Origin: Candidatus Woesearchaeota archaeon
GTDB lineage: Archaea > Nanobdellota > Nanobdellia > SCGC-AAA011-G17 > JACPIM01
Assembly (NCBI GenBank): GCA_043817645.1
Contig: JBDRGP010000029.1
Coordinates: 58,226-122,225 of the forward strand
Length of the DNA: 64,000 nt
Direction of reading: 5' to 3'
Part shown: piece after piece, positions 3,965-63,600 of the stretch
Layout of the letters: every line of letters starts with the position of its first letter
Numbering within the stretch: position 1 is the first letter of the stretch
Program-made: the position numbers and the translations under genes
Notes under the pieces: generated by a model
Database searches by the model: none
Told to the model about the DNA's origin: nothing
The model's input: the letters and a program-made list of their open reading frames with translations, nothing else

Positions 3965-3970
3965 GCGAAT

Positions 3971-4002
3971 CCAGGAGTTTTACTACTCTTGGATTTTTTT
4001 TA
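3971..4002 (+). terminator. Hairpin (ccaggag...ctcttgg) followed by a T9 tract immediately 3' of the tRNA
   Basis: The hairpin has a 7-bp stem with one G:U. A T-run follows, as is typical of archaeal termination signals. Confidence 0.45.
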
Positions 4003-4078
4003 TTTACTTTTTGCCATTCTCTAAATTTTTTAATGTGCTTCGACTGCCTAAATTTAATAATTCTTATTGTGATACTTT

Positions 4079-4889: not shown

Positions 4890-4962
4890 GTATGCGTCGT
4901 TCAGAAAATATATATTGAAGAATACATAACAAAATAATACCAGTAAGGCCTAACTAAAACAA

Positions 4963-5223
4963 ATGGAAATCAAAAAGAAAGCCTGGCCAGAATTATTCCA
5001 AGCTGTTTTAGAAGGAAAAAAGAAATTTGATCTTAGATTGGCAGATTTTGAATGCGCTCCAGGAGATACACTAATTCTTGAAGAATGGGATCCAGATACT
5101 AAATCCTACACAGGAAGAAAAATAGAAAAGAAAATAACCTATATCCTTAAAACAAAAGACCTAAAATTTTGGCCTAAGGAAGATATAGAAAAACACGGAT
5201 TTCAGGTCATGTCTTTTGAATAA
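4963..5223 (+). CDS. DUF3850 / ASCH-PUA-like small RNA-binding-fold protein
   Basis: 86 aa. WPELFQAVLEGKKKFDLRLADFECAPGDTLILEEWDPDTKSYTGRKIEKKITYIL matches the conserved DUF3850 pattern (WPEYFEAV..GKKTFE.R..D..F.VGD.L.L.EY). Confidence 0.6.
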   Translation: MEIKKKAWPELFQAVLEGKKKFDLRLADFECAPGDTLILEEWDPDTKSYTGRKIEKKITYILKTKDLKFWPKEDIEKHGFQVMSFE

Positions 5224-6263: not shown

Positions 6264-6652
6264 CCACCTTAACAATAAAACACATCAATGTAACTAATTT
6301 CAAACCAAAAGAGATTAGAGCACAATTAGAGATAGGATTTGATAAGGGAGACAAACCCCAAACCATAAATAAAGAATATCTCTTAAAAAATCCAGAAGAA
6401 CTTCTAACACAAATATTTTTAGACATAAAATCAAAAGACAGAGTAATAATCGATGATCCAACTTTAGACCCGGTAGAAAAATTAGAGATCTATTCTCCGA
6501 TTATTATAAAAGATGAAGAGCAAGTAGAAGCAAAAATCTATCAGTTCATAAAACAATTATGTGAAAAAGCAGCGCATATAAAAAACACAAGAGACGCTAA
6601 AGTACATATGAAATTATTTGATGAGTTTAAGACTGCTTCTTTGCAGATATAA
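6260..6652 (+). CDS. Hypothetical protein translationally coupled to the AEP primase (possible small primase partner)
   Basis: 130 aa, overlapping the primase by ATGA. No recognisable family. Confidence 0.4.
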   Translation: MTTLTIKHINVTNFKPKEIRAQLEIGFDKGDKPQTINKEYLLKNPEELLTQIFLDIKSKDRVIIDDPTLDPVEKLEIYSPIIIKDEEQVEAKIYQFIKQLCEKAAHIKNTRDAKVHMKLFDEFKTASLQI

Positions 6653-6691
6653 CAAAAAAAGTTTAAATACACTAAAAGCTAAAAATAAAAG

Positions 6692-7660
6692 ATGATATGC
6701 CTATCTTTAGAAGGGACCGCCCATACGGCAGGGTGTGCAATAGTAACAAGTAAAGGAAATATCCTATCAGATATTAGGGATATGTACACTAAAGAAACAG
6801 GAGGAATAATCCCATCAGAAGCAGCACAGCATCATAAAAAAGTATTCCCCGGATTAATTAAAAAAGCAATAAAAGAAGCAAATATTAAAAAAATAGACTT
6901 AGTGGCTTATTCAAAATCACCAGGACTTCCACCATCACTAAAAGAAACCCTAAATGCAGCAAAAGATATAGCAAAAGATCTAAATGCACCATTAATCGGT
7001 GTAAATCATTGTATCTCTCACCTTTCATCTGCGCATTTCTTCACAAAAACAAAAAATCCCATATACGTTTTTGTTTCCGGCGCCAATACACAAATAATTT
7101 CTTTAGAGGGTGAAAGATTTAGGCTACTAGGAGAATGTATTGACATGGGTTTAGGAAACGCCTTAGATAAGTTTGGTAGATCTATAAACCTAGGTTTTCC
7201 AGCAGGCCTAAAAATAGAAGAATTGGCAAAAAAAGGAAAATACATAGAACTACCTTATACAATAAAAGGAATGGACTTATCTTTCTCAGGCATAATCACA
7301 TCAGCAATTGACAAATTTAAAAAAGGAGCTAAAAAAGAAGATCTCTGTTTTTCAATACAAGAAACATTATTTGCAATGCTAACAGAAGTTACAGAAAGAG
7401 CATTAGCGCATACAAGAAAAAATGAAGCGGTTATAATCGGAGGAGTGGCGGCAAATAAAAGACTTTCAGAAATGCTTTCAATAATGTGTAGAGAAAGAAA
7501 TGCTAAGTTTTATGCAGTTCCTTTAAAATATTCTGGAGATAATGCTGCGATGATCGCTATACAAGGAATCTTAGAATACAAAGCAGGAAACCGAACAAAA
7601 CATCCGGACATAGAACCATATCAAAGAATAGATGAAATAAAAGTTAGTTGGAAATACTAA
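6692..7660 (+). CDS. kae1: tRNA N6-adenosine threonylcarbamoyltransferase Kae1 (TsaD family), not fused to Bud32
   Basis: 322 aa. It starts MICLSLEGTAHTAGCAIV and includes NAPLIGVNHCISH; the fold is ASKHA, Kae1-type. Confidence 0.9.
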   Translation: MICLSLEGTAHTAGCAIVTSKGNILSDIRDMYTKETGGIIPSEAAQHHKKVFPGLIKKAIKEANIKKIDLVAYSKSPGLPPSLKETLNAAKDIAKDLNAPLIGVNHCISHLSSAHFFTKTKNPIYVFVSGANTQIISLEGERFRLLGECIDMGLGNALDKFGRSINLGFPAGLKIEELAKKGKYIELPYTIKGMDLSFSGIITSAIDKFKKGAKKEDLCFSIQETLFAMLTEVTERALAHTRKNEAVIIGGVAANKRLSEMLSIMCRERNAKFYAVPLKYSGDNAAMIAIQGILEYKAGNRTKHPDIEPYQRIDEIKVSWKY

Positions 7661-15283: not shown

Positions 15284-16471
15284 TTGATTGTTTTCATAAA
15301 TTCGTATTCTAGAGATTTTAATAGTTATAACTTTATTAAAAATCCCAAAAATAGTTTCCCCAAAAGTGGTCTAACCGTCAGAACGAAAACATTTAAATAT
15401 GCCAAAGTCTTTTATGAGTTTATGGAAAAAAGAGTGGTATTCCCAAAAGGGAAACAAAGGGAGTTTTTAGTCTCTTCAAGAAAAGAACTAAAACTAACCT
15501 GGCCGGAATTTGCTGAAAAAGTCGATACAAAAAGAAAAACTCTAGAAAAGGCCTATAGATATGAATATTGTTCGATGCCATATGGGGTTTTTTCTAAAAT
15601 AGTTAATGAAAGAAACATCAATAAAAAGAGACTTATTAGAGATTATAATATCAAAATAGTAAAAGGAAGTAGATATGGTGCAATTGGAAGGAAGGTGTTA
15701 GGAGAAAAAAGAGCGAAATTAGGCAATATCAACCTTTTATTTGAAAATTCTATACATCCATTTAACACTAGCGTTATAAAATTAAGCAAATATGATGAAA
15801 TTAAGAGAATAAAATTTCCAAATAAATTAACTCCAGAATTAGCTGAAGAAATCGGCATGCATATAGGAGACGGTTTTTTATCCAAAAGAAGGAACGAATA
15901 TCGTTTAAAGGGGAATAAAAATAACGAAAAAGATTACTACAAATACTTCATCAAAAAGCTTTACAAGACTTTGTTTAATTTAGATATTAATCTAAAAGAA
16001 TATGAATCGACATATGGATTTGAAATAAGCTCAAAAGGTCTCTGGACATTTAAAAATAAAATTTTGGGTATTCCATCAGGGAAAAAAGATGATATAGATT
16101 TGCCCGCAATTATAAAAGTGAATGACAAAGATATCCTAACTTCATTTATCCGAGGAGTTTTTGACACAGATGGTTGTGTTAACTTCAAAAGTGGATACGG
16201 TCTAAAGGGATATTACCCAAGAATAGAGATAACAATGCTCTCAAAAGATTTAATAGGGAGCATATCGGAGATATTATATGCATTGGGATTAAAACCATAT
16301 AAGCATCAAGATAAACTAGGATATTGGCATATTACTTTAAATGGCTATGAAAGATTTGAAAGATATAATAAATTAATAGGATGGCATAATCCCAAACACT
16401 TAAGAAAGATAAAAAAATGGAAAAAACAATATCCAAAATTAGGAAAGGATGTAATGGTAGGGGTAGTGTAG
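15284..16471 (+). CDS. Free-standing LAGLIDADG homing endonuclease (two LAGLIDADG motifs) with a ~180-aa N-terminal extension
   Basis: The motifs are IGMHIGDGFL and IRGVFDTDGCV. The last ~5 codons and the stop run into the 5' end of the tRNA-His gene. Confidence 0.7.
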   Translation: MIVFINSYSRDFNSYNFIKNPKNSFPKSGLTVRTKTFKYAKVFYEFMEKRVVFPKGKQREFLVSSRKELKLTWPEFAEKVDTKRKTLEKAYRYEYCSMPYGVFSKIVNERNINKKRLIRDYNIKIVKGSRYGAIGRKVLGEKRAKLGNINLLFENSIHPFNTSVIKLSKYDEIKRIKFPNKLTPELAEEIGMHIGDGFLSKRRNEYRLKGNKNNEKDYYKYFIKKLYKTLFNLDINLKEYESTYGFEISSKGLWTFKNKILGIPSGKKDDIDLPAIIKVNDKDILTSFIRGVFDTDGCVNFKSGYGLKGYYPRIEITMLSKDLIGSISEILYALGLKPYKHQDKLGYWHITLNGYERFERYNKLIGWHNPKHLRKIKKWKKQYPKLGKDVMVGVV

Positions 16472-16546
16472 CCTGGTTAGTTTTTACCCAGAAAACACGC
16501 AAGTCTGTGGAGCTTGAGATCGCGGGTTCAAGTCCCGCCCCTTACC
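16456..16546 (+). tRNA. tRNA-His (anticodon GTG, 16507-16509) with encoded G-1 and an apparent ~14-nt insertion in the D-loop
   Basis: Folded by hand. G-1 pairs with C73. The acceptor is gtagggg/cccttac, and the D-stem is gtgt(16466-69)/acac(16495-98). The anticodon arm is caagt-CTGTGGA-gcttg, and the T-arm is gcggg-TTCAAGT-cccgc. 25 nt lie between the D-stem halves, and the insert can form a gtttt/aaaac hairpin. Confidence 0.6.
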
Positions 16547-16568
16547 CGTTTTCAAAAAAGAGGTCAAA

Positions 16569-19128: not shown

Positions 19129-21288
19129 TCAAGGCAAAAGATCCATCCTGTAAGACCACAACCAAACCTCGCAATTTTCCACTTGATGGGCTCTAGAAGT
19201 TATACAAAGTCCTAAAACTTCTTGATTTTCATCAAACTCCGCATATAAACCATAAAAATCATCAAAAGTAGTACCCCATCTCCTATGTCCTCCCTCATAA
19301 TCATACATAACACTCTCGCCACATTCAACTGATTCAGGATATGCTCTAAGAAAATCCTCTAAGTTATCTCCTATACCAATTCTTCTATTCGTCTCACCTG
19401 TCCACCCCGGACCTACAAAGACATGTCCCAAATTGTTATAGGACCAAAGTAAATGAACACCACCATTAATACTTCTCATCTCTAAAGTATCTCCGTAACC
19501 TCCATCATGTCCTTCAAAAATATCAAAATCAGGACAATCATCAGCCAGGTGGTTTCTATCAGTAGTTCGAAGCCTTAAACCACCAAAACCAGCATAATTC
19601 ACTTCGAGAAAAATATTAGAATCCTGACTTAAACAATCGCTATAGCCGACCGGGGGTGGAGGAGTAAAACCAAAAATAAACATCTTTTTTTCTCCTGTAG
19701 AAGTATGCAAACCCCAATAAGGCTCAACAGGCGCCCAGTCTTTCCAAGGTTGATCAAATGCCTCAAAAAAGGAAAAGGCTATTCCAGCATGATTCTCATT
19801 GTATAATAACTCATAAAAAAATTCCAACTGCGTTAACTCACTAACTTCAGGATCACCACTAGTAGGCATTCCCGTTTCTTTAATCAAGATTTGTTTCTCA
19901 CCAGCAATGTTTTCCAATTGCCCATATACTTCAGCAACTCTAGCAGCCGCTTGTATAGGATCCTTTATATTCAACCAATAAGGATGGACATTTGGCAATA
20001 AAAATTCTCCAAACCCTACTAAATCCGGATTCTCAAAATAATCTTCAAATTGCTCTGTTGTTGAAACAGGCTTTTTAGTTCCGTTTCTTAAAGTTCTCCC
20101 AGCAGCAAGCAAATCTTCCAAAGTGTATCCACCATTTTGACCCAATAACTCATTTCCAATACAATAGCCATTAGAATATTCTCCCACATCGATAGCATCC
20201 TGTATCAAACCACCATTATTAGTAAACCAAACACCTGTAATCACACTCGCAAACCCAACTTCTTTTGCTATTCTTGGCACTTCTTTTAATGTACTCTCAA
20301 CATCATAAGTTATCAAACCAGTAAATCCTTCTTCTCTCAAAAGTTCTAAATCATCTCGTATACTCTCAACACTTGGAAATATTCCCTGCGTGGGATCAAA
20401 GTTTCTGGGAGCATAAGTTACCCACATACGACTACTTAGACTATTAGTTAAATTACGAACATTCCACTCATAACCCCAATCAAGCCTAACATCAAACGTT
20501 ATCTGCAAAGATTCACTAAGAGCAATCCCATCGCTTGCTTTAAAAGAAACCGTATCCATACCAACAAAATCAACATCAACTAATTGATATGTCAATTTAT
20601 TAGTATCAGTTATAACCGCAGTCCCATATTGCGGTTCATTAACAACCAAAAAAGTCAGGTCATCTCTATCTACATCACTCCCATACATATACACAGCCTT
20701 AGGATCTGTTCCACGAACAATGGCTTCTAAAGTATTGGCGCTAACAATAGGTGGATCATTCACATTTGCAACATTAATTGTAACCTTAGAACTGTTACTA
20801 TCAAATTCCCCGTCATTAGTCCTAAACCAGAAACCATCTTCCCCAAAAAAATCAATTTCAGGAGTATATGTCGCAACATTGCCATCCAATACAACCTCAC
20901 CATGGCTAGAACTACTAGTAACTCTAAAAGTCAAATCATCACCATCCTCATCAGTACCATTTAATACAATACCTAAAGGCGTTTCTTCCAGTACATTTAC
21001 ATTCATATCCCCAGTTTTAGGAGCATGATTAATATCCTCACCCTGCTGTGAATCTCCATCGCCAGAGCCCCCATCACCCACTGGAGGATCTGGAGTAGTA
21101 TTACCATCTCCTAAAAAAGGATCTTGAGGAGTTTCATCAATTATTGGATCATCTACTGGATATTCAGTCACAGGAGGCTCAGTAAGAGGAACAGCAGAAG
21201 GCGTAGGCGGTATACACCCCCATCCAGCAACTCCAACAACACCACCAATTAAATATTTTTTTAAAGACCTCATTTTCGCACCTCCCAA
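19129..21288 (-). CDS. Secreted protein: signal peptide, Thr/Pro/Asp-rich linker, two cadherin-like/VCBS-type repeats, and a GH17-like (beta-1,3-glucanase-like) TIM-barrel domain
   Basis: 719 aa. The repeats are NHAPKTGDMNVNVLEETP...TYTP and NDPPIVSANTLEAI...TYQL. The glycosidase motifs are CIGNELLG (acid/base region) and LIKETGMPTSGD, which matches the GH17 nucleophile motif TETGWPS. Confidence 0.55.
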   Translation of the reverse strand: MGGAKMRSLKKYLIGGVVGVAGWGCIPPTPSAVPLTEPPVTEYPVDDPIIDETPQDPFLGDGNTTPDPPVGDGGSGDGDSQQGEDINHAPKTGDMNVNVLEETPLGIVLNGTDEDGDDLTFRVTSSSSHGEVVLDGNVATYTPEIDFFGEDGFWFRTNDGEFDSNSSKVTINVANVNDPPIVSANTLEAIVRGTDPKAVYMYGSDVDRDDLTFLVVNEPQYGTAVITDTNKLTYQLVDVDFVGMDTVSFKASDGIALSESLQITFDVRLDWGYEWNVRNLTNSLSSRMWVTYAPRNFDPTQGIFPSVESIRDDLELLREEGFTGLITYDVESTLKEVPRIAKEVGFASVITGVWFTNNGGLIQDAIDVGEYSNGYCIGNELLGQNGGYTLEDLLAAGRTLRNGTKKPVSTTEQFEDYFENPDLVGFGEFLLPNVHPYWLNIKDPIQAAARVAEVYGQLENIAGEKQILIKETGMPTSGDPEVSELTQLEFFYELLYNENHAGIAFSFFEAFDQPWKDWAPVEPYWGLHTSTGEKKMFIFGFTPPPPVGYSDCLSQDSNIFLEVNYAGFGGLRLRTTDRNHLADDCPDFDIFEGHDGGYGDTLEMRSINGGVHLLWSYNNLGHVFVGPGWTGETNRRIGIGDNLEDFLRAYPESVECGESVMYDYEGGHRRWGTTFDDFYGLYAEFDENQEVLGLCITSRAHQVENCEVWLWSYRMDLLP

Positions 21289-34308: not shown

Positions 34309-34881
34309 TTGATGGAAGAAAATCAAAGCGAAAAAGGCGCAATTACAGTCAAAAAAAGTATATTGTGGAAATCTGGCACATTTGTGTTTGCAGTATTATT
34401 CATAATAAGCTTATTTACTGGTGGATTTGGACTAAGAAATGATGAATCTGACGCAACTGGAAATGTTATAGCAAACGACCAAGCACCCAATCCAAATATA
34501 GTATCTGAAGACTGGACTGTTTTCGAAAATGAACTTCCAGCAGAAATCAAATCACAAATATTAGCATTTGATAAAGAAAATCCAGAACCTTACGAAGGGA
34601 GGATAACGGAATTTAAAAATTATGATTCCATCCCAAAGACATTAACGGTATTCTACAGTGCAGGCTGCGGATGGTGTAAGCGCTATTATCCAGTTCTTCT
34701 CGAAGCAATGGACAAATATCCTGAAATTGAGATTTATACCCTAGACCTGGGTAGCAATAGTGACGTAGGAAGCATATATGCTGTAAGAGGAACACCAGCA
34801 AATATAATTAATGGTAAATACCTAGTTAGCGGATATATGCCAATAGAGGATTTATCAGAAGTTTTAGACAAACTAAATTAA
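34309..34881 (+). CDS. Membrane-anchored thioredoxin-fold thiol-disulfide oxidoreductase
   Basis: 190 aa with an N-terminal TM. The active site is AGCGWCKRYYP (CxxC). Confidence 0.65.
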   Translation: MMEENQSEKGAITVKKSILWKSGTFVFAVLFIISLFTGGFGLRNDESDATGNVIANDQAPNPNIVSEDWTVFENELPAEIKSQILAFDKENPEPYEGRITEFKNYDSIPKTLTVFYSAGCGWCKRYYPVLLEAMDKYPEIEIYTLDLGSNSDVGSIYAVRGTPANIINGKYLVSGYMPIEDLSEVLDKLN

Positions 34882-35085
34882 TATCAATTTTTTCTTTTTT
34901 TATTCCCTTAAATATATAAGTATCATGGGAGTCTTACTGCTAAACCCGCTCATACTAGTACTGAAACTCATCACAATGTTAATGCGAAAATTGAGAAAAA
35001 ACTGGCTAAGGCTCGGGCAAAAGCGATGAAGAAATCTAGTAAGTAGAAGGAAAATTTAAAAAGAAGTATATTCCTTTATTATTTA

Positions 35086-35447
35086 ATGAAAAGGGGTTAT
35101 GCTAAGATCTACTTTATTGTTCTTATTCTTTTAGTTAGTTTTAGTTTCTTTTTTAATTTTGATGGTTTGAAAGATATTACTGGTAGGATTTCTAGAGAAG
35201 AGTTATGCAAATCTGATATTTGTGATACTGATCTTTTTGTGGGTGGTGAAGTTGTTGGACGTGCGAATGTTTGTGAGAAGGAAGGAAAGATTGAGATTAG
35301 AGAACATTACGCTGGAGAAGAATATTATCCAGACACTTATGGTGGGCTAGAGAATTCTAATGGTGAATATCACTTTACTTTATATGATGGTAGAGATGCG
35401 ATGGTTTATTTTGCTTTTACTGAAGATAGAAGGAGAAAATGTTCTGA
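35086..35447 (+). repeat. Mosaic ~360-bp duplication shared with 41020-41393 (5' ends of two secreted-protein genes)
   Basis: The first ~125 bp and the last ~125 bp are near-identical, including a 100%-identical block tattatccagacacttatggtgggctagagaattc...gaaaatgttctga. The middle ~90 bp is divergent. Confidence 0.7.
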
Positions 35448-37374
35448 TAAGAGTGTTGTAGAGGTGGATGAGGAAGAGGTTTAGGGAATAATTGGAGTCA
35501 ATTGTGAGAGTCTATCAATTGAGGAGTGTACAGCAAATTCGGAGAGATGTGAAATTGCAAATGTAGAAGTAGCTTCTTCTGGAGGATGTGGACGGGAGAC
35601 AACTTCCTTTAGAGATAGGTGCATTGATAAACGAACCGAAGAAGCGTGTGAGCTTAATGGTGGGGAAATTTGTAGTGGTTGTTGTGAAAATATACTTTTT
35701 TCTACAGATGAATTTGTTTGTTGCAGACAGAATAATTGCTTTGTTGACGAACTTACAAGAGACTATACTGGATTAAGATGGGTGTGGACAAACGAATATA
35801 AGTTTATACCGATTGATAATGCGAAAATTACAAGAACATTTCCTGATGGGGAGTATGTGGTTGTTGCTAAAGATATTTATGGCACAACATATAGTGCGAT
35901 ACTTGATAAAGATATAGAAGGGCGTCCCTTAGAAGGAATATCGTCTTATAAATTTAATCTAGGCCCCTATGATCCTCTGAGGGAGGTAGATTTACTTGAA
36001 AGTGAGTGTCTTTTTAGTATAACTTCAATTAGAGATGGTAAACTCTATCCTACTATTAATCCAAGGACGGGTTTGCGAGGAACAATATTTTCTTTTGCTT
36101 TTTCTGTTGATTCCACTGGAATAGAATATATGCCTGCTTCTAGCGATTCTGCTGGAATAGAAAGTGTGTTTGTTTCTACTGTTTCTTCTGGTTTTTCATA
36201 TAGAGTAAATACGGTGGAAAGGGAAGTAGAGAGGGCATATTTTGTACTTTCTGATTTAGGGGGTAATGAACTTTTAGTAGCGGATATGTATGACGATGGA
36301 TTACACGGAGATGGTGAAAACGGTGATTATATGTTTGGTGCAATATTTGACTCTTCATCACTTCCAGTTGGACTATACAAACTTCGATTTTATGTTATAG
36401 ATAATTTTGGCATGGATAATAGTCGAGATTTTTCTTTGAAAATTGAGGATGAATCGGCATTTCAATCTAATTGTATTGAGGTTTATCGAGGTCATAATAG
36501 AGTTGAGGCTCATAACAGAGCAAATGCAATCTTTATCGGGTATGGTTATGATTCCATAACTGATGTAGCAGAGATAAGTAGATGGCAGATGGATAAGCTT
36601 TTGGAGTTAACGCCTTTTAATGAGAATCGAAATAAAATTAATTTTTGGGTGGTCAATGAGATAGGAAGTTTAGACTTATGTCATGATGTAGACTACATTT
36701 TTTATGAATCTGTGGATTGTATTTCGGATTTAAAACAAAGATGCCCCTTTTCAAATGCATTTGTAAATCATCTTGTAAATAGGGATTTTAGATCGCATGC
36801 ATACCCCGCTGTTGAAGAAACTCATAACTCCTTTCCTCTAGAGAGATTGGGTCGCGATTATTTGCTCGCTCATGAGTTTGGGGGGCATACTTTTGGCAAA
36901 CTGTTAGATGAGTATGTAGAACCTGATAATCCAGACAATGTTTTGAATAGTCTCTTCCATGATATACCGTATGTGCTTCCGCAATATGGACCTAATTGTT
37001 ATTCTACTATCGAAGACACTACTTATGATCAATGTTGGCAAAATGCCCCTTGGAAGGAGTTTTTTGGTAGAGGTTGTGGTGATGAAGGCGTAATTGATTG
37101 TGAAAACCTTGTTTTAGAGAGGCAAAGATGCATACTCGCGTGTATAGATCTGTATGAAGATTTGAATGAAAGAACGTCTTGTGTGGATTCTTGTCCAGTA
37201 TACCCAGAAGGTGCTGAAAGAGAAATTACTTGTGTTGAGGGTTGCCAATTATTTGAGCATGGTACCTTCAGACCGAATCACTGTAGTCTTATGATGGCTC
37301 CTGAATTTTGCCTATATTTCGGCTTGTGGAATGAGCATTTATTACAGCAAAAATTAAATCAGTATTCGGAATAA
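35086..37374 (+). pseudogene. Secreted Cys-rich protein: one continuous reading frame (~762 codons) interrupted by a single in-frame TAG at 35482-35484; the C-terminal part carries an HEFGGHT...DEY zincin-like motif
   Basis: ORFs 35086..35484 and 35782..37374 are in the same frame, with no other stop between them. The first ~120 codons are near-identical to the start of gene 41020..43314. Confidence 0.5.
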
Positions 37375-37410: not shown

Positions 37411-37890
37411 ATGAGACTTAATCAGAGAATACTAAAAACAGGCCTTGCACTAGGTGCATTATCCCTGGGTGGATGTATATGGGATCTTGAGTCACTTCTA
37501 AAAACAGAACCTGCAACTCCTCTTGTTGGTATGTGGCGTGAACAGGCTGCTTATTCGTGTAGTGGTCAGAGAATCAATAGTAGAGAACCATTTAGAGAGT
37601 TAGTATTTGGAGATAGTTCTTTTACTTTTACCTGGGCCCCTTTTGAGAGTTATGTTGATTATTGGGGTACTTATTCATATAATTCGGAAAGTGGAGAAGT
37701 TGTTATGAGTATCACAGGAGGGAACCAGATTCCGGAAGTATATGATCTTAGGGGTAATGTTTCTTTTAATGAAGATGGAACACTTCACCTTGAGGATATG
37801 TTCTTTGGTTTTCCAGGAGTTCCTTGGAATGATTCTACAGAAAGACTGGATGAAAGACCATGTAGCTATGTTATTGAAGAATTTTTCTAG
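37411..37890 (+). CDS. Lipoprotein, hypothetical
   Basis: 159 aa. It has a signal peptide and lipobox LSLGGC. Confidence 0.45.
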   Translation: MRLNQRILKTGLALGALSLGGCIWDLESLLKTEPATPLVGMWREQAAYSCSGQRINSREPFRELVFGDSSFTFTWAPFESYVDYWGTYSYNSESGEVVMSITGGNQIPEVYDLRGNVSFNEDGTLHLEDMFFGFPGVPWNDSTERLDERPCSYVIEEFF

Positions 37891-38507: not shown

Positions 38508-38592
38508 CTGTTATTAAACCCCTACCGGAGATCTAAACTCCAAAAACTAAAATAGCACTGAAGCTTAGTTCTCCGGCGGGTAAAAGAGGTGA

Positions 38593-39913: not shown

Positions 39914-40849
39914 ATGAAAGAGTTTGATATTGCTATTCTTGGAGGTGGGGTTACTGGGTTAGCTGCTGCTGTGTATTCTGCCAGATTCAATATGAAAACT
40001 ATTGTTTTTGGCGGTAGATTAGGTGGTTTGATTCAAGATACACATTTGGTTGAAAATTATCCTGGTTTTAAGAGTATTTCTGGATTTGATCTTTCTCAAA
40101 ATATTTTAAATCATGCTAAAGCTTATCCTGAGCAGGTTACGATTAATGAAGAACTTGTTAAGGATGTTGAGAAAACTAAAGATGGTTTTTTAGTTAAAGG
40201 TGCTAAAACTAATGTTAAAGCTAAAACTATATTGTTTGCTACTGGAACTAGAAGAAGAAAGTTAAATGTTCCTGGTGAAAAAGAATTTGCCAATAAGGGT
40301 GTAAGTTATTGTGTAACCTGCGATGGACCATTATTTAAAGGGAAAAAATGCATTATAATTGGTGGGAGTGATAGTGCTGTAAAAGAATCTTTATTACTTG
40401 CTGAATATGCTTCTAAAGTTTATATTGTTTATAGAAAAGAAAAAGTACACCCTGAGCCAATAAATATGAAAAGGGCTGAAGAATTAATTAAAAAAGGAAA
40501 AATTGAGATTATTGGTAATACTAATGTTGTTGAGGTTAAAGGTGATAAGTTTGTTAGTTCTGTTATTTTTGATAAAGCCTATAAGGGAAGTAAAGAGTTT
40601 AAGTGTGAAAGTGTTTTTATTGAGATTGGTCATATAGTTGAGAGTGAGTTGGCTAAAAAATTGGGTGTTAAGTTGGATGAAAAAGGAGAAATAATTATTA
40701 ATTTTGATTCTAAGACTAATGTTGCTGGTGTTTATGCTGGTGGTGATGTTGTTGCAAGAGCTTGGAAACAGGCTATTGTTGGTGTTGCTGAAGGTGTTTT
40801 AGGAGTTAATTCTGCTTATGAGTATATACAAGAGCAGAAAGTTAAATGA
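39914..40849 (+). CDS. trxB: Thioredoxin-disulfide reductase
   Basis: 311 aa. It has FAD motif ILGGGVTGLAAAVY, redox CVTCDG and NADPH motif IIGGSDSAV. Confidence 0.85.
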   Translation: MKEFDIAILGGGVTGLAAAVYSARFNMKTIVFGGRLGGLIQDTHLVENYPGFKSISGFDLSQNILNHAKAYPEQVTINEELVKDVEKTKDGFLVKGAKTNVKAKTILFATGTRRRKLNVPGEKEFANKGVSYCVTCDGPLFKGKKCIIIGGSDSAVKESLLLAEYASKVYIVYRKEKVHPEPINMKRAEELIKKGKIEIIGNTNVVEVKGDKFVSSVIFDKAYKGSKEFKCESVFIEIGHIVESELAKKLGVKLDEKGEIIINFDSKTNVAGVYAGGDVVARAWKQAIVGVAEGVLGVNSAYEYIQEQKVK

Positions 40850-41001
40850 AAAAAGTAGTATTTTGTCCTATGTGTAGATCTACAAATGTGAGTTTTGATG
40901 CTAGATTAGAAATTGTTTATCCTGTTTGTAAAAATTGCGGATTTAGAAGTATTGGCATGGATTTTCCTCACAAAATTGTTAAGAAATCCTTAAAAAGGTA
41001 G
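40846..41001 (+). CDS. Small C4 zinc-ribbon protein coupled to trxB (ATGA overlap), not in the ORF track
   Basis: The translation is MKKVVFCPMCRSTNVSFDARLEIVYPVCKNCGFRSIGMDFPHKIVKKSLKR (51 aa). Confidence 0.4.
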   Translation: MKKVVFCPMCRSTNVSFDARLEIVYPVCKNCGFRSIGMDFPHKIVKKSLKR

Positions 41002-41019
41002 AAAGTTTGTTCTTTTTGT

Positions 41020-43314
41020 ATGAGAAGAGGTTATGCTAAGATCTACTTTATTGTTCTTATTCTTTTAGTGAGTTTTAGTTTCTTTTTTAATTTTGATGGT
41101 TTGAAAGATATTACTGGAAGGATTACTAGAGAAGAGTTATGTACTGATGATATTTGTGATACTGATCTTTATGTAGGTGGCGAGATTCTTGAAGATGCGC
41201 GTGCAAATGTCTGTAAAGAGGAGGGAATAGTTGGTGTGAGAGAGCGCATTTCTGAGTTTCCTAGAGAATATTATCCAGACACTTATGGTGGGCTAGAGAA
41301 TTCTAATGGTGAATATCACTTTACTTTATATGATGGTAGAGATGCGATGGTTTATTTTGCTTTTACTGAAGATAGAAGGAGAAAATGTTCTGACGAAAAT
41401 ATTATAGAGGAACCTTCTGTTTCGAAGGAAGGGACTTTTACTGTTTCAAATCCTTGTATGGGACTGCCAGAAGATGAATGTGGACTAACAGAAGGATGTG
41501 TTGTAGATTATAGGGAACAGGGTCAATCAGGTGGAATTGGAAATTGTTTTGGTAAACAAACGCAAATAGTACCTGTGTGTCTTGATGGCGGAGAAGAATG
41601 TGTTCCTATTTTACCTACTACGCCTGAAAAAACCTTAACTTTTGTGGATGAAAAAGATGTTCCTATTGAAGTTACTGTAACAAAAACTAATTCTGGATTT
41701 TCTTTTCGTAGGAGTTCTGGAGGCGAGTATTCAACAAACACACTAGCAACTGGAGAGTATTGTACGGTTGTAGGAGTGAATTTTCTCACAGGTATTGAAA
41801 ATTATAACTATCAAATGCAGATCGAAAGTTGTAGTGGAGAGGGAGAAAATAGGATTTGTACATATGTCCCAAATGATCTGACCTGGAATCTTGTTGATAC
41901 AGAAGGAGAATATGTTTACAACCAGGCGTTGAGTGGTGAAAATCAAGAAGAAAATTGCCCTCCTCTTCTTCCTGCCACCTTTTCTTGCCCTGAAGAAGGC
42001 TGCCCAAATCCCTATCCTGGATTGTGCAATATCTGGGCTCTTCCTGTTCAGATTCCTGTTTTAATAGGTGCATATTGTGATGGGTGGGATGCACGAGAGT
42101 TAGCTACTGGAGCAAATGCACAACAAGAAGTAGCTGATTGTGATCAGCGGGTGAGGGATGCTATTGAAGGCAGTGGAGAATGTAATAATAATCCGCCAAC
42201 CGTTTCATCTAGTGGGAAGTCAACGCCCAACTTTAAGGAAGGAGATAAATGCGAGCTAATGTGGGCTGTTAATGATATTGAAGATTCTTCAAATCAAAAA
42301 GAAACAGACCTTTTTGTCCCGCGCATTATAGATGAACCCTCCATTAATGATCTTTTTTCTAAAAACCCTCCTTATGAACAGATTATGCCTTATGTTATAT
42401 ATGATAAAGAAGGCAAACTCTATTCTCAAGGGACCAATTTATTTAGGAGGGTGGTAGGAAGAGCTATTGATTCTGGGACTGATCAGGATGGTAAGCTTTG
42501 TCAAGAAAAAGGAGAGGCAGAAACCTCAAAAGAAATAATAATCCCAACGGTTGAATTTCGAGGGAAGAAGGCCGTCCAGTTACCGACGCTTAAATTTGAG
42601 ATTACCAAAACCACCTACAAGGATAGTTGTGATCCTAAGGGGATACTTGATGCGGGGTTTGTTATTGAGACAACCATTGAAAGATGGCTTATACTTGAGG
42701 ATTGTCAGATTGCGGGAAAGACTACTCTTAATTTTAAGTATAGAAATATGTTCTTAGGATCTCCATCAAATTATTCTGTGAGAACGGGACTTTTTGAAGC
42801 AGTTGAGAAGGCTTTGGAGGGGGGTATAAGTGAAGCCAATCTTGAAAAGGTCAAAGGATTTATCTTTAGGTATTATACTCCGCCACCCCACAAGGAATGG
42901 CAATATGCTCCTTTAATTGTTGAGTCTGTCGATGGAAAAGTATACTTAAGCACTATTGATCACGAGATGACTGAAGGGCTTGCCTTGCTTCCGAATAAAC
43001 AGAAAGATTTATTATTGACTCCGCCAGGGAGTTTGAACTTTAAAAGTATAGAAAATGATGAAGGTGAGGAGGCACTTAGATCAATTGAGATTAATGTGGA
43101 AGAAGGTGCTAATGGTGCGGCTAAAAGATGTTTCAATAATCTAAAAGAAGATGATCAAGATGGGGGATTTTGGGGAAAAAGGAGTATAAGACAAGAGAAC
43201 CAAGCTAAAAAATTTGCTGAAATAGAGGCTTTCTATACTGGATATATTAAAGGACACTATGATAAACTAGGAGAATATTTTGAAAACGCAAGGTCTTGTC
43301 TTTGTAAGGAATAA
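41020..43314 (+). CDS. Large secreted Cys-rich protein, paralog of 35086..37374 (shared N-terminal module)
   Basis: 764 aa with a signal/TM, then many Cys pairs. The first ~125 codons are near-identical at the DNA level to 35086-35447. Confidence 0.6.
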   Translation: MRRGYAKIYFIVLILLVSFSFFFNFDGLKDITGRITREELCTDDICDTDLYVGGEILEDARANVCKEEGIVGVRERISEFPREYYPDTYGGLENSNGEYHFTLYDGRDAMVYFAFTEDRRRKCSDENIIEEPSVSKEGTFTVSNPCMGLPEDECGLTEGCVVDYREQGQSGGIGNCFGKQTQIVPVCLDGGEECVPILPTTPEKTLTFVDEKDVPIEVTVTKTNSGFSFRRSSGGEYSTNTLATGEYCTVVGVNFLTGIENYNYQMQIESCSGEGENRICTYVPNDLTWNLVDTEGEYVYNQALSGENQEENCPPLLPATFSCPEEGCPNPYPGLCNIWALPVQIPVLIGAYCDGWDARELATGANAQQEVADCDQRVRDAIEGSGECNNNPPTVSSSGKSTPNFKEGDKCELMWAVNDIEDSSNQKETDLFVPRIIDEPSINDLFSKNPPYEQIMPYVIYDKEGKLYSQGTNLFRRVVGRAIDSGTDQDGKLCQEKGEAETSKEIIIPTVEFRGKKAVQLPTLKFEITKTTYKDSCDPKGILDAGFVIETTIERWLILEDCQIAGKTTLNFKYRNMFLGSPSNYSVRTGLFEAVEKALEGGISEANLEKVKGFIFRYYTPPPHKEWQYAPLIVESVDGKVYLSTIDHEMTEGLALLPNKQKDLLLTPPGSLNFKSIENDEGEEALRSIEINVEEGANGAAKRCFNNLKEDDQDGGFWGKRSIRQENQAKKFAEIEAFYTGYIKGHYDKLGEYFENARSCLCKE

Positions 43315-43705: not shown

Positions 43706-44812
43706 ATGGAAATGTTTGATGAATTTGGTCCTGAAAAGATATTAGAAGTTTATAATCCTAAAGTTGGAATGAGGGGTTTTGTTGTGATCGATAATACGAG
43801 CTTAGGCCCTGGAAAAGGAGGAACAAGAATGACTCCTTCTGTTTCTAAAGAAGAAGTGTTTAGATTAGCAAGAACAATGACATGGAAGAATGCTTTAGCG
43901 GATTTGCCGTTTGGTGGTGCAAAATCTGGAATTATAGCTGATTCTAAGAAGATTGATAGGGAAAAGAAAAAGACTATTGTAGAGGCTTTTGCTGAAGGGT
44001 TGAAAGTTGTTTCTCCTAGCCAGTATATTGCCGCTCCTGATATGAATATGGCTGAAGAAGAAATGAAGTGGTATGCTGAAAAAAATGGTGATATGAAGAG
44101 TTGTACTGGAAAGCCTAAGGATTTAGGGGGATTGCCTCATGAATTAGGAAGTACTGGATTTGGAGTTTATCATTCTTTGTTAGTTGCTGCTCCTTATGCT
44201 GGATTAGATATTGACAAGGCTACAGTTGCTATTGAAGGATTTGGTAATGTTGGGTGGTTTGTTGCTAAGTTTTTGAAAGAGCATAAATGTAAATTGGTTG
44301 CTGTTTCTGATTCTTCTGGTGTGATTTATAATAAAAAAGGATTAGATTTTAAGAAATTAGCTAAAGTTAAGAAAGAGAAAGGTAAAGTAACTGCTTATGG
44401 TGAAGGCGAAGTTATGCCAAGTAATGATATTTTAGATGTTGATGCGGATATTTTAGTTACTGCAGCAATTCCTGATTTAGTTAAGGGAAGTGATGTTGAT
44501 AGATTAAAATTTAAGATGATTGTTGAAGGGAGCAACATTCCTATGATTGAAGCTGTTGAAAGAGAGTGTTTTAAGAAAGGCATATTAATGGTTCCTGATT
44601 TCTTAGCAAATGCTGGTGGTGTAATTAGCAGTTATGTTGAGTATACAGGTGGTGGTGAAGAAGAGATGTTTAAGATGGTTGAAGAAAAAATAAAGAAAAA
44701 TACAGAGATGGTTATGAAGGCTGCTAAAGAAAAAGGAGTTTTGCCTAGAGATGCTGGTATGGAGATTGCTGTTGAAAGAGTAATGGAGAAATGTAAGGTT
44801 TGTAGAGTATGA
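43706..44812 (+). CDS. Glu/Leu/Phe/Val dehydrogenase family protein (short glutamate-dehydrogenase-like)
   Basis: 368 aa. GPGKGGTRMTPSVSKEEVFRLARTMTWKNALADLPFGGAKSGI is the catalytic-Lys region of the GDH family. It has a C-terminal Rossmann fold. Confidence 0.85.
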   Translation: MEMFDEFGPEKILEVYNPKVGMRGFVVIDNTSLGPGKGGTRMTPSVSKEEVFRLARTMTWKNALADLPFGGAKSGIIADSKKIDREKKKTIVEAFAEGLKVVSPSQYIAAPDMNMAEEEMKWYAEKNGDMKSCTGKPKDLGGLPHELGSTGFGVYHSLLVAAPYAGLDIDKATVAIEGFGNVGWFVAKFLKEHKCKLVAVSDSSGVIYNKKGLDFKKLAKVKKEKGKVTAYGEGEVMPSNDILDVDADILVTAAIPDLVKGSDVDRLKFKMIVEGSNIPMIEAVERECFKKGILMVPDFLANAGGVISSYVEYTGGGEEEMFKMVEEKIKKNTEMVMKAAKEKGVLPRDAGMEIAVERVMEKCKVCRV

Positions 44813-45351
44813 ATTCGGTATTAATACTATCAATTATTCTTTTTATTTGGATTGTTCTTACTTTTTTAATTCCTATTTTAACGTTTCCCAGAATGCCTTT
44901 AATTGATTTTAGTTTGCCTGTTAAGTTGCCAAAAGAATTGAAAAAAGAGATTAGTAAACTAAGAAAAATTAAAGCTAAGAAAAAAGTTATTCTTGAAAGT
45001 TTAAATTTTATTAAGAAAAATTTTGAGAGTAATTCTCTTTTATTATTTTTAAAGTTGCATAGACATTATTATAAGGATTTAAGCTCAATTTTAAAGAAGA
45101 GGGGATTTTTTCCCTGCCATATTCTGGCTTTTATTTTGAGGGTGTTATTGATTGAGAGCGGGAGATTCAAGGAAGAAGATATTAAGGTTCATTATACTTT
45201 TTATAGTGGGATTATTCATGAGTATTTGAAAGTTTTTGTTAAAAATAACTGGGTTAATGTTGATCCTTGGGCGTATAATCAAGGTGTTCCTTTTGGGAAG
45301 TTTGGTATGGGACCGGTAATTGATTGGTTTAGGTTTAAAAAAAGAATATAA
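44809..45351 (+). CDS. Hypothetical membrane-associated protein coupled to the dehydrogenase gene
   Basis: 180 aa with an ATGA overlap with the upstream stop. It overlaps, on the opposite strand, the putative continuation of the dph2 remnant. Confidence 0.4.
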   Translation: MNSVLILSIILFIWIVLTFLIPILTFPRMPLIDFSLPVKLPKELKKEISKLRKIKAKKKVILESLNFIKKNFESNSLLLFLKLHRHYYKDLSSILKKRGFFPCHILAFILRVLLIESGRFKEEDIKVHYTFYSGIIHEYLKVFVKNNWVNVDPWAYNQGVPFGKFGMGPVIDWFRFKKRI

Positions 45352-45353: not shown

Positions 45354-45617
45354 TTATCCTGGTTTCGGAGTTAATTCTTTTGGAGAGGCATGACCGAATT
45401 GTATTAGTAAATCTATGTTTTTTATATTTGGATAATCGCAAGCTCCCCAGCAGGATTGTAGCCAGATGAAGATGTTTGCTTTTGTTTGTTTTTTTAGATA
45501 TTTTGTTATTTCTGTTGCTTTTGGTTTTAGGCCGTCTGGTAATTGGATTAAAACATTTTTTGCTTTTGTTTTTTTTATTTCTTTTACTGCCTTTCCTAGT
45601 TCTAGATTGTATTCCAT
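45354..45617 (-). pseudogene. dph2: Truncated N-terminal fragment of diphthamide synthase Dph2 (radical-SAM 3-amino-3-carboxypropyl transferase)
   Basis: 87 aa. KNVLIQLPDGLKPKATEITKYLKK...WGACDYPNIKNIDLLIQFGHAS matches the Dph2 N-terminal third (VLIQxPEGLK...YGACD...DALIHLGHS), then stops. The full protein is about 330 aa. Confidence 0.5.
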
Positions 45618-58500: not shown

Positions 58501-60066
58501 TCACGTTGGAGGATCTTCATAAACAACACGATAAAGAATAACAGAAAACAGCTTAGCAGTAATGATAGGTTTATCACTAATTCTTCCATATACAACCAAA
58601 GAAACACAAATATTCACTAAAACCCACAAATTATACAAACACACTGAAAATAAGAAATAAAACAACCTTATCAAGTAATTCTTACTAGTAGTTCTGGCCT
58701 TAAAATCATGATCTAATTGCCTATATCCAGTTTCAATACCCCATCTTTTAGAATACCAATAATAAAGATAATGAGCTAATTGTTCTGGAACATGAAAATT
58801 AGTGATAAAGGCTCTTTGAATACCTTCCTCATCATCTACTAGAATTAGATTAACTTTGGCTTTCTCCTTCTTACCAAACTCAAAATCTTTAATTATTCTA
58901 GCTCTACAATCCAAACTTTTATCCATCCAAGCCTTAACTCTATCACTCCTTACTTTAGGCATTACAAACTTAATTCTATTGGCCTTAAGAACATTAATCA
59001 CCTTTGGCTTATCAAAACCCCTATCTAAATAAGCCTTATCAATATTTATTTTATCTTTAACTCTTTTAATTATTTTATCAACTAAGTCCTCTAAATTATC
59101 CAATTTATGCATTAATATGGCATCAATCGTAAACCTTCTTCCAGCAACCACAATAGCACATGTAATAAATTGATGAAAATGTGTTGTACCTCTATCTAAT
59201 TTCCCTTCAATTACATAATCATCGTTCTTATCACCATAATAAGGAATATTATGAATGTCTATAGCTATATCTAACTGTCTTCTTCTTAATCCTCTATAAT
59301 TTCTCTTAGCAAAGTTAAAAATAGTGTTAAATACATTATCAAACATCTCTTGTATTATTGTTTTATTACTAAATTTATTAAAGTGATATAACATAGTCCA
59401 GCCACTAGGACATTTCGATTCTGAATTTAATTCTTTAAAAGTTTCAGTACCATTATGGGCAAAATCATGTGTTTGTGCAACATGTACCAAGACATCTAAC
59501 AAATCTTTAGTAGTAAACTTACCATTATTTTTAATCTTAATATCAATTTGCGGATAAATTAATTTCTTTACTAATTTTATAGTTTCTTTTTTTATTTTTC
59601 TTTGTTCTTTAATCTCTTTATTTTTTTGATTAACTGCATTTTTTACTAATTCTAAATCTAAAATAACTCCTTTTTTAGTTGCAGTTTTAAGAATTAATTT
59701 TACTATATTATTTAATTCAAAAAATAAATCTTCATCAACTTTATTCTGGAAAAATCTATTATACCAACTTTTAGCAGGTAAAACTAATTTATTACTCTCT
59801 TTATGAAATCCTAAATGTAACGCTTCTTCCTCCGTTATTTGATCTAATGCTTTATGAAAGAACCTTATTGCTTTGATTTTCTTCCAAAGATAGAATTTCA
59901 GTAAAGATTCAGGAGAGAATTTAGATTGTCTTTGATTGATTACATTGGTAGTATTAGAGAGATCTAACTTGGATAAAATAAAAGAAACCTTAATACAACT
60001 TGTAGTATCAAGGCTTTCAAAAATTTTATTAAGTTCAGATTCCAAATAGCCAATAGAGTTTTTCAT
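58501..60066 (-). CDS. DDE transposase (IS4/ISH3-like family)
   Basis: 521 aa. It has DRGFDKPKV..., a typical DDE-IS4 C-terminal region. Confidence 0.6.
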   Translation of the reverse strand: MKNSIGYLESELNKIFESLDTTSCIKVSFILSKLDLSNTTNVINQRQSKFSPESLLKFYLWKKIKAIRFFHKALDQITEEEALHLGFHKESNKLVLPAKSWYNRFFQNKVDEDLFFELNNIVKLILKTATKKGVILDLELVKNAVNQKNKEIKEQRKIKKETIKLVKKLIYPQIDIKIKNNGKFTTKDLLDVLVHVAQTHDFAHNGTETFKELNSESKCPSGWTMLYHFNKFSNKTIIQEMFDNVFNTIFNFAKRNYRGLRRRQLDIAIDIHNIPYYGDKNDDYVIEGKLDRGTTHFHQFITCAIVVAGRRFTIDAILMHKLDNLEDLVDKIIKRVKDKINIDKAYLDRGFDKPKVINVLKANRIKFVMPKVRSDRVKAWMDKSLDCRARIIKDFEFGKKEKAKVNLILVDDEEGIQRAFITNFHVPEQLAHYLYYWYSKRWGIETGYRQLDHDFKARTTSKNYLIRLFYFLFSVCLYNLWVLVNICVSLVVYGRISDKPIITAKLFSVILYRVVYEDPPT

Positions 60067-60605: not shown

Positions 60606-63600
60606 TTGATAAAAAAGAATATTCTTTTGCCGATATTCATTTTATTAATAATTATAAGTTTCTCTGCTATTGTTATCTCTCAAAAAACTTCTCTTCAAAA
60701 AGCAAATTCTATAAAGAACATAGATGATTCTGATATGCTTTATAAGTTTACACATTTAAAAGGATATAAATCTATCAGTTTTGATATCTCCTCTTCTAAG
60801 GACTTTAATATTAATAAAGTTGAAAAAATTGATACTTTTTCTGATAAAAAAGTTGGGAATATATTTAAATTGAATAATTTAGCTGTAGAAACGGAGTATA
60901 AAGAGGTAGACACAAGTTTTTTTAATACAGATACAAGACCTGTAAAGCAGACTTATATCATAAAAAATTTATTAGATAAATCTAGAGATATAAAGTTAAA
61001 TATAAAATACGAAATTGACTCTTCTACTATAACATGGAATGGTACAGAATATGAAATCACTGAAACTCCTAAACATTTTGAGGCCTTTTATGTTGAAGAT
61101 GAATTTTTTCCCGATAATGAACTTTCTCCTGAAATTGCTATTAAATCTTTAACAGGGCATACTTTATATTTTGGTAATAATTATTATGATTTTAAAGATG
61201 TAGTTGATTTGGATTATAAAGTTTTAATATATTCTAAAGAAAATAAAAATTATATTGGTTTAGAAATAAAATCCGATATTGATTCTTTAGAAGAATTTGT
61301 GATAGATCCTGAAATTGGGTGGACAACCAGGATTGTAGATAATTCAGCAAAGGGAGCAAGGGATGTGTTTGCAATAGATATGGATAATGATAATGACATA
61401 GATGTAGTTGGCGCATCTTTTGCAGGATTGGTTAATAAGATTGCCTGGTATGAAAATGATGGAAACTCTCCTCCAAGTTGGACCACTAGAAACATAAGTA
61501 CAATCATTGTTTGGAGTGAACCACGTTCAGTCTATGCAATAGACATAGATAATGATAATGACATTGATGTGTTGACTGCATCTTCTCAAGACAATAGGGT
61601 TGCCTGGTATGAAAATGATGGGGGTTCTCCTCCAAGTTGGACTACAAGAAACATAACTACTTCTGTTGATGCAGCACAGGATGTTTTTGCAATAGACATA
61701 GATAACGATAATGACATTGATGTGTTGAGTGCATCTTATTATGATAATAAGATAGCATGGTATGAGAATGATGGATCTACACCACCATCCTGGACCACTA
61801 GAAACATAACTACTTCAGCAAATGGAGCTCGCTCTGTTTTTGCAATAGATATGGATAATGACAATGATATAGATGTGTTAAGCGCTTCGGGAAGTAAGGT
61901 CGCTTGGTATGAGAATGATGGAAGTACTCCTCCTAGTTGGACTGCTAGAACTATAACTACTTCAGCAAATGCACCAAGGCGTGTGTTTGCAATAGATATG
62001 GATAATGATAATGACATAGATGTGTTAAGCGCTAATTATGATAAGATAGCTTGGTATGAGAATGATGGAAGTACTCCTCCCAGTTGGACTGCTAGAACTA
62101 TAACAACTTCAGTAGGTGCAGCAAGGGATGTGTTTGCAATAGACATAGATAATGATAAGGATATAGATGTGTTGAGTGCATCTTCTCATGATGATAAGAT
62201 AGCATGGTATGAGAATGATGGAAGTACTCCTCCCAGTTGGACTACTAGAATTATAACAACTTCAGCAGATGCAGCATATTCAGTCTATGCTATAGATATA
62301 GATAATGATGGAGATGTGGACGCTTTAAGTGCATCTACTACAGATGGTAAGATTGCTTGGTATGAAAGTCGTTTAGACCCTTCTTCTATTTATAAGTATT
62401 TGTGGGTCCCATTTGGAAATTGGAACTCTCAACAGGAATTTGAAAATGATGCTAAAAAAAGAGCAGACTTTTTCCTAGAAATTTCTCCTTTACAATCCTG
62501 TAAAAGTAAAGCACAGAATATTTATATTGATATTGACTGGGTAGAAGTTAATTGCCCCTATGTGACATCAGACATTCCTGAAAAAAAATTATTACAATTT
62601 ACAGAAAAGTGCGCAAAGGCTTATATATTAGACACTGGTATAGGACCTTATGAAAAAGCAATAAGCTTTTCTAAAGATGATTTTTGTGATAGTTGTGCTG
62701 GAAAGGCTACTCTAGGTGGAAAATATGCTTATGCTGAAACTGAGTGGAGTGGGGTTGAGCATCTAGAAATCGCCGCACACGAATTAGGGCATACTTATTT
62801 TGTATGTGATGAATATAAATATCTTGGAACTTCAGGATGGTCTAATGAGAATAATGAGTTGTTATTAAAGCACGGGTTTGGTTGCCCGAATCCTTGGACT
62901 GATACATATGATGAGTATAATGAAACACACTCTAACCATCCATGTTTAGAGGATGATAGTGGAAGATGTATTCGCGAGGGAAAATGTTGTGGTGCCTTTA
63001 ATGACCCAATTAGCCATTACGATGGAATTTATTCTGCTGCTGGCAATGATTGTACTGATGAGACTACCTATAATGTTGTTGGGTGGGGTGGCACAGAGAG
63101 AAGATGTGGATATAGTACCGATTCTTACAACAAATTAGCAGAATTTTTAACTTGTTCAGATAATCTACGATCCAACGGAAATGGAAATATCACAAATGTT
63201 TCATATTTAGGTTTGCTATTTAATATAACTAATCCAACACAGGAAAATGTCACTTTGGGTGACAGCTTTGTTCATAGAGGATTGTTGCCTAAGAAATTAG
63301 GCGTCAATGATAGTCTTTATGAACTAAAGATCACTAATGCCAATAATCAAACTATAGATTCAGATCCATTACCAGTATTCTACTTTGAACTAGTGCAATA
63401 TGACAATGCAACTATAAATGTAAGCGATGATAAAAATGAAAGTTTTATTGTTAGTGAGTTAGAATACACATCAAATTGGGAAATGTTGCAGGTTTATAAA
63501 AACGATTCTTTAATTTATGAAGTCAATATTTCTCATTTATTATGCAATGAAAATGATATTTGTGATGAAAAAGAGAACTTCTTTAGCTGTCCACAAGATT

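Follow-up and report, generated by a model that had tools for sequence, protein, structure and literature searches.

Two genes that lie 5.9 kb apart on one contig of a Candidatus Woesearchaeota archaeon, here termed gene A and gene B, probably belong to a small paralogous family that has been partly homogenized by short-tract ectopic gene conversion and has at least four copies in the same metagenome-assembled genome (MAG). The family would comprise large, Cys-rich, extracellular proteins anchored in the membrane at their N termini, in which a portable module of ∼125 residues is fused to unrelated C-terminal payloads. Nonreciprocal homologous recombination between the copies would keep parts of the module similar, and the latest event would have copied a patch of ∼129 bp from one of the two genes to the other. 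The likeness of the 5′ anchor segment would date back to earlier homogenization and/or reflect constraint, and the old divergence of the family would be retained in the segment that follows and beyond codon 125.

Segmental identity between gene A and gene B

The stretch of DNA analyzed here (the window) comprises 64 kb of the MAG (DPANN; locus tag prefix ABIB47), which derives from a genome of ∼33% GC. Positions 34980 to 35560 were aligned with positions 40914 to 41500, a protein-guided codon alignment was added, and dS and dN between the two genes were estimated for each segment (Table 1). Similarity begins practically at both ATG codons. The initial annotation had described near-identical flanks at positions 35086 to 35447 and 41020 to 41393, including an identical block of ∼125 bp; the alignment reproduced this mosaic at the same positions, and the identical block was found to be real and to measure 129 nt. 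The central stretch is indeed divergent (68% identity) but 110 to 122 nt long, not ∼90 bp. Divergence past codon ∼125, which had been called complete, is seen in the DNA (44% identity over 12 codons), whereas at the protein level a weak similarity in Cys spacing continues to approximately residue 195. Two assemblies agree at 100% on this arrangement.

Table 1. Features of the gene A and gene B loci. Positions refer to the window unless stated otherwise; dS and dN are Nei-Gojobori estimates for A versus B.
Feature	Position	Strand	Remarks
Membrane-anchored thioredoxin-fold protein	34309..34881	+	CGWC; directly upstream of gene A
TATA-box-like TTTAAAAA	35055..35062	+	31 nt upstream of gene A ATG, by reading
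Gene A 5′ ORF, ABIB47_04935 (P0008)	35086..35484	+	132 codons; N-terminal module; ends at TAG
In-frame TAG of gene A	35482..35484	+	Same frame then open for 629 codons, to 37374
Gene A remainder	35485..37374	+	Cys-rich linker, middle region, M64-like metallopeptidase domain
Zinc motif of gene A, CATGAGTTTGGGGGGCAT	36871..36888	+	HEFGGH (CAT GAG TTT GGG GGG CAT); extra Gly
Lipoprotein-like gene	37411..37890	+	159 aa; directly downstream of gene A; counterpart beside P0005 (43%)
TATA-box-like CTTAAAAAG	40989-40997	+	Same 31-nt spacing before gene B
Gene B, ABIB47_04980, hypothetical protein	41020..43314	+	Intact 764-aa ORF
Segment 1, codons 1-41	A 35086-35208, B 41020-41142	+	Signal-anchor and module start; 6 differences/123 nt, 95%; dS 0.19, dN 0.02
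Segment 2, aligned codons 42-82	A 35209-35318, B 41143-41264	+	Divergent core; 68% nt identity; two 2-codon (6-nt) indels; dS 1.06, dN 0.31
Segment 3	A 35319-35447, B 41265-41393	+	Unbroken 129-nt run, 100% identical; dS 0 (0 changes over ∼25 synonymous sites), dN 0
Segment 4, next 12 codons	From A 35448, B 41394		44% identity; dS 1.3, dN 0.96
TATA-box-like TTAAATATA	Contig L003, before copy D		Same 31-nt spacing

The length of the identical run exceeds what is expected by chance. When the 62 differences were shuffled over the 396 aligned sites in 200,000 trials, a run of ≥129 nt was never reached (P < 5 × 10−6), and on third codon positions alone (26 differences in 132 sites; observed run, 43) the excess was likewise significant (P = 2.5 × 10−4). 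Synonymous divergence inside the identical block (dS 0) stands against 1.06 and 1.3 in the two segments beside it, and by our own arithmetic from the substitution counts, a segment 3 free of synonymous changes would arise with a probability of ∼0.01 at the rate of segment 1 and of ∼10−9 at that of segment 2. The tract belongs to no family found in an Rfam search, and as RNA it folds no better than shuffled sequence.

No further copy of the module was found in the 64-kb window by a repeat search or by tblastn with the module and its distant homologues. The genome-wide hunt for module copies that had been suggested along with the initial annotation yielded two more in the same MAG by profile search, P0003 (ABIB47_03855, copy C) and P0010 (ABIB47_02455, copy D), both annotated as partial and both stopping at residue 139; their last 47 residues (141 nt) are identical to each other. 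Identities between A, B, C, and D were therefore tabulated at the protein level, over five segments of 6 to 42 residues each; the DNA of copy D at hand comprised 154 nt from a JGI metagenome contig (L003), and copies C and D were otherwise compared as proteins. In segment 2, A groups with C and D (26 to 28 of 37 identities, versus 20 to 21 of 41 for B with C/D), while in segment 3 it groups with B (42 of 42; either one versus C/D, 35 of 42). In segment 4 ("DKSVVE"), A, C, and D are the same at all six positions and B shares two of the six with C/D; in segment 5 ("EPSV[SP]KEGTF"), it is B that groups with C/D (9/12), and A shares 1 to 2 of 12 residues with any copy. These groupings cannot be reconciled with one tree, and the module is accordingly a mosaic produced by recombination; with the nearest paralog switching between segments, the pattern is best explained by short-tract gene conversion among the paralogs. 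The seven differences that C/D have in segment 3 indicate that protein constraint is insufficient to account for the DNA identity of A and B.

The mechanism and the direction of this exchange are what we infer from the distribution of identities. A resembles C/D on both flanks of the patch and B is the outlier, which makes transfer from A to B slightly more parsimonious and weakly suggests gene A as the donor. Copies C and D join an A-like module to a B-like payload start, an arrangement that shows, as far as the sequences can be read, an additional exchange at the boundary of module and payload; with this extra junction at codons 130 to 131, module variants and payloads would have been re-assorted among the copies. 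Recent recombination between paralogs, as proposed initially, is borne out by the sharp contrasts in dS and by the change of nearest relative once the extra paralogs are included. A swap of the signal peptide together with the whole N-terminal module does not hold as a recent event (the 129-bp 3′ patch is recent, whereas segment 1 has a dS of 0.19), and module swapping as such holds insofar as C and D show the boundary exchange. With regard to segment 1, the leader MKRGYAKIYFIVLILL (its first ∼17 residues) is nearly invariant even between homologues of ∼30% identity, and the likeness of this segment could partly reflect selection.

Gene A as an interrupted M64-like peptidase gene

Gene A had been described as a secreted Cys-rich gene, a description that overlooked the in-frame TAG, by which an ORF of 132 codons is separated from 629 open codons. 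If the TAG is counted as a residue, the complete frame has 762 aa, which is close to the length of gene B. Public annotation splits it into two separate hypothetical proteins, ABIB47_04935 (132 aa) and ABIB47_04945 (530 aa, from GTG 35782), and this GTG is also the start of JGI protein P0001, which implies that the TAG is present in the JGI assembly too. No start codon with a hydrophobic leader or signal sequence was found downstream of the TAG; the peptidase part could therefore reach the outside only via readthrough.

Over its C-terminal 324 aa, gene A shares 48% identity with P0005, a 718-aa protein encoded on contig L004 of another DPANN MAG (GCA_964367885.1), which carries the module and an M64 domain in one unbroken ORF. 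Pfam Peptidase_M64 (PF09471) scored 15.2 to 18.3 bits with gene A and 52.1 bits with P0005, at a gathering threshold of 26; the 48% identity to a protein that passes this threshold establishes M64 homology of gene A by transitivity. A profile of A and P0005 gave weak, collinear matches to the M64-like structures PDB 4df9 and 3p1v, with HEFG(G)HTFGxLxDEY and a C-terminal "EGxxxxxxGxFRP" block as the parts collinear with the solved structures. In the gene A motif, HEFGGHTFGKLLDEY, the extra Gly gives HExxxH, not HExxH, and the DEY is present; P0005 and both structures have HEFGH where gene A reads HEFGGH. The extra Gly is encoded by a run of six G residues (36880 to 36885), the sole homopolymer of note around the locus. 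HExxxH spacing occurs in the M49 family, so HEFGGH alone is no proof of inactivity. The gene downstream of P0005 encodes a protein 43% identical to the product of positions 37411 to 37890, and a RimK gene lies near both loci. By comparison with P0005, gene A is a local, interrupted counterpart of a single-ORF gene for an anchored M64-like peptidase, and ABIB47_04935 and ABIB47_04945 are two pieces of this one gene.

It is unlikely that the TAG is decoded by readthrough or recoding, in which case A would be functional as a 762-aa protein and conversion would involve two active genes. The 629 codons that follow it contain no stop, no frameshift, and no further defect in a genome of 33% GC, and the TAG occurs in separate assemblies, as decoding would have it. 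However, TAG is the terminator of 15 of the 61 ORFs in the window, and gene A is the sole case there of an in-frame TAG ahead of a long, truly coding ORF, so that TAG is neither avoided as a terminator nor recurrent within frames, as would be expected for pyrrolysine or a reassigned stop codon. The altered zinc motif also fits decay, and the missing start with a signal sequence downstream of the TAG speaks against a decoded TAG as well. A second combination of TAG and long open frame, at 45673 (minus strand), proved to be a frame that is open by chance and overlaps other genes. Gene A has probably been inactivated recently, a pseudogene status that we deduce from its premature TAG and its altered zinc motif; although interrupted, it would still recombine with its paralogs.

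The shared module, its relatives, and its surroundings

Residues 1 to 25 of the module, MKRGYAKIYFIVLILLVSFSFFFNF, consist of a short basic stretch followed by ∼18 hydrophobic residues, and no small-residue cleavage motif was visible by eye in this leader. Two AF2 models of the module, built from 6 and 8 sequences, were of low confidence (pLDDT of 57 and 55) and had a helix at residues 3 to 32 or 5 to 22, followed by 5 to 6 beta strands; the conserved Cys residues of the domain are at positions 41, 46, 65, and 123. The module had no match in Pfam. We read it as a predicted type II signal-anchor, or possibly a specialized signal peptide, plus a small beta-rich domain. The proteins had been described as secreted; their extracellular location is retained here, a demonstrable cleavage is not, and anchoring at the N terminus is the topology favored by the leader as judged by eye and by the helix in the AF2 models. 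In a check by eye for a class III (type IV pilin-like) signal, MKRG-YAKIYFIVLILLVSFSFFF showed the K/R-G and a hydrophobic stretch, although with Lys at +3. The leader pattern MKRG[YF]AKIYF[IL]VL[IF][LF]L is almost invariant among P0005, P0007, P0011, and window positions 35086 to 35136, a degree of conservation seldom expected of a signal or anchor.

Relatives of the module are few. An exhaustive HMMER search with the module recovered only a small number of them, a scan of GTDB representative genomes recovered none, and a search of viral contigs gave no match. Among the distant homologues, the module is placed on other payloads in P0011 (a 552-aa Cys-rich protein of a Nanoarchaeota MAG), P0004, and P0007. 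In gene B, the module is followed by a Cys-rich C-terminal region of 639 aa. When full-length A and this region were used as queries in word-indexed protein searches, nothing beyond the window's own proteins was returned; no homologue of the B region was thereby detected, and its payload is an orphan.

TATA-box-like sequences precede genes A and B and copy D at the same spacing, from which we infer putative independent promoters and leaderless or near-leaderless mRNAs for these three copies. Scans for bacterial-type promoters and terminators around both window genes were uninformative.

The two genes had also been likened to contingency or surface-variation loci, for which we found no support: simple-sequence repeats, invertible segments, and long inverted repeats were not found around A and B, there is no cassette array, and the only tandem repeat at the two genes was a trivial 10-nt, 2.7-copy match in the region coding for the transmembrane segment. 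A silent donor archive with a single expression site is likewise not what is seen, with two module copies in the window and four in the MAG. Programmed surface variation, in which defective or silent copies such as the TAG-interrupted gene A donate segments and thereby alter the surface of a host-dependent DPANN cell, is in our estimation quite improbable. The family is extracellular, Cys-rich, and multicopy with segmental mosaicism, one of the recombining genes is intact except for a premature stop, and a DDE transposase ORF adjoins copy D, all of which such a system might show. But the converted part is the conserved, anchor-proximal module and not the variable payload, which makes the effect homogenizing instead of diversifying; there are only four known copies; invertases and recombination-site motifs were not found, nor were repeats; and each copy examined (A, B, and D) has its own TATA-like box, so none appears silent. 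The payloads are unrelated, and mutual substitution is therefore impossible.

The genes around A and B are ordinary chromosomal genes, including those for a TrmB regulator, a thioredoxin reductase, a glutamate dehydrogenase, an SMC protein, and an aldehyde dehydrogenase. The thioredoxin-fold protein encoded upstream of gene A may serve exported, Cys-rich proteins as a disulfide oxidoreductase. Immediately before gene B, positions 39914 to 41002 encode a thioredoxin-reductase-like flavoprotein and contain a 51-aa zinc-ribbon ORF. Disulfide-handling machinery may thus be encoded beside both genes for Cys-rich exported proteins.

Several further features of the window and of contig L003 were recorded. 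In the convergent gap between a 187-aa gene and the TrmB gene, a hairpin (38520 to 38579, minus strand) gave a subthreshold match to an Rfam microRNA precursor (29.8 bits versus 69) and is probably a plain stem-loop. The sole Diphthamide_syn (Dph2) match is an 87-aa ORF (45354 to 45617, minus strand), much below normal Dph2 size, possibly a truncated remnant that adjoins the gene at 44809 to 45351. A tRNA-Gly(CCC) at 16457 to 16547 (plus strand; 91 nt, with intron-sized room) overlaps the last 15 nt of the ORF at 15284 to 16471. A 718-aa protein with Big_9 and cadherin-like domains (19129 to 21288, minus strand) is a probable surface protein, and a DDE_Tnp_1 transposase of 520 aa is encoded at 58501 to 60066 (minus strand). 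Within the ORF at 60606 to 63977 (plus strand), positions 61343 to 62276 comprise ∼6 tandem units of 153 nt (77% matches) that encode FG-GAP-like repeats (Pfam FG-GAP_3, six stretches) in a protein of at least 1,123 aa. On contig L003, a transposase/integrase-like DDE ORF of 306 aa, recognized by eye (6451 to 7371, minus strand), lies ∼190 nt upstream of copy D, and an SRP54 homologue of 1,031 aa (1969 to 5064, minus strand) has an interrupted P-loop (…GLYGAGK/CVHAKS … IIVHN/TTTISKLA…) that looks like an intein in the GTPase domain.

Robustness of the mosaic and comparison with known systems

We regard it as very improbable that the identical tract is an assembly artifact, i.e., a collapsed or chimeric join with a mosaic that is absent from any one genome. 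The source is a MAG, P0003 and P0010 are partial, and L003 ends within copy D, at codon 51, with DNA 91% identical to both window copies; these other copies sit at contig ends, and assemblers clearly do struggle with the module repeat family. Moreover, the flanks on either side of the 129-nt tract are linked through assemblies that may share data. Nevertheless, over both loci the window is 100% identical to L001 and L002, MEGAHIT contigs of ENA assembly ERZ27247128, and each copy is well inside its contig; the tract is shorter than the final k-mer of 141, so that k-mers span it. Even a misphased join would leave two left and two right flanks around one tract, which is a mosaic, and the assembled phase of A (A-type segment 2 with "DKSVVE") agrees with the linkage in C/D. 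The 141 nt over which C and D are identical equal the k of 141 given in the names of the ENA contigs, and the ends of C and D would correspond to a break in the (de Bruijn) assembly graph at a repeat no shorter than k.

Hardly credible at all is one old duplication without recombination, with purifying selection that varies along the module as the source of the identity pattern: segment 3 is the best-conserved stretch of the module in distant homologues and the dN of segment 1 is low (0.02), but protein constraint leaves synonymous sites free (0 of ∼25 changed in segment 3 versus an adjacent dS of ∼1), C/D depart from A = B at 7 of 42 residues of this segment, the closest relative differs segment by segment, and the tract yielded no sign of an RNA or DNA element.

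Gene conversion between paralogs, the reading preferred here, is a known process. Archaeal cases include the thermosome subunit paralogs and short-patch conversion in Sulfolobus. The loci described here resemble archaeal interparalog conversion in that the paralogs are dispersed and tracts without synonymous divergence lie inside old duplicates. Ectopic gene conversion has also been reported for the duplicated mtrA genes of methanogens (PMC4632066). In contrast to cases of the mtrA type, the recent tract found here is only ∼129 bp long, the module sits on unrelated C termini, the organism is represented by a DPANN MAG, and one of the partners carries a nonsense codon.

In bacteria, antigenic variation from silent or pseudogene copies operates at Neisseria pilE/pilS, Borrelia vlsE, and Anaplasma msp2. 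What these systems share with genes A and B is a surface protein family with mosaic segments in which a defective copy continues to recombine. Unlike in pilE, vlsE, and msp2, there is no expression site with a silent array here, the conserved module and not a hypervariable region is converted, recombination-promoting elements were not found, and any variation would be hypothetical.

Polymorphic toxin-like proteins such as CdiA, Rhs, and LXG combine a conserved N-terminal trafficking domain with a variable C terminus. The family shares with them a conserved N-terminal part that abruptly gives way to unrelated C termini, with junctions that cluster at codons 125 to 131, and a small conserved gene downstream of A. 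It differs from them in that the module has only ∼125 aa and matches no known trafficking domain in Pfam, and in that the payloads are Cys-rich extracellular regions of 640 aa, one of them an M64-like peptidase, with no sign of immunity genes. With M64 (IgA peptidase-like) enzymes, gene A has in common the homology linked through P0005 and the motifs collinear with 4df9 and 3p1v; it departs from them in its score below the gathering threshold, in HEFGGH for HEFGH, and in the TAG between signal-anchor and peptidase.

The searched literature contained nothing specific on Cys-rich surface families of DPANN archaea or on gene conversion in this group. Little is gained conceptually, since the recombination mechanism is already well known; the protein family itself has very few members and had not been described. 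A farther-reaching interpretation, to which we attach little likelihood, is that the ∼125-residue module acts as a cassette for anchoring or sorting, exchangeable and specific to DPANN archaea, to which defective copies contribute as donors, amounting to a primitive surface remodeling based on gene conversion. Recombination would then re-assort the cassette among extracellular payloads of a host-dependent archaeon, with the TAG-interrupted gene A as a donor.

A practical consequence is that the module repeat family fragments assemblies. If the gene conversion reading is true, short-patch ectopic conversion and re-assortment of modules and payloads are documented in DPANN archaea, a group known almost only from MAGs. 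A small and hitherto undescribed family of anchored, Cys-rich extracellular proteins would also be defined, with a possible role in contact with hosts.
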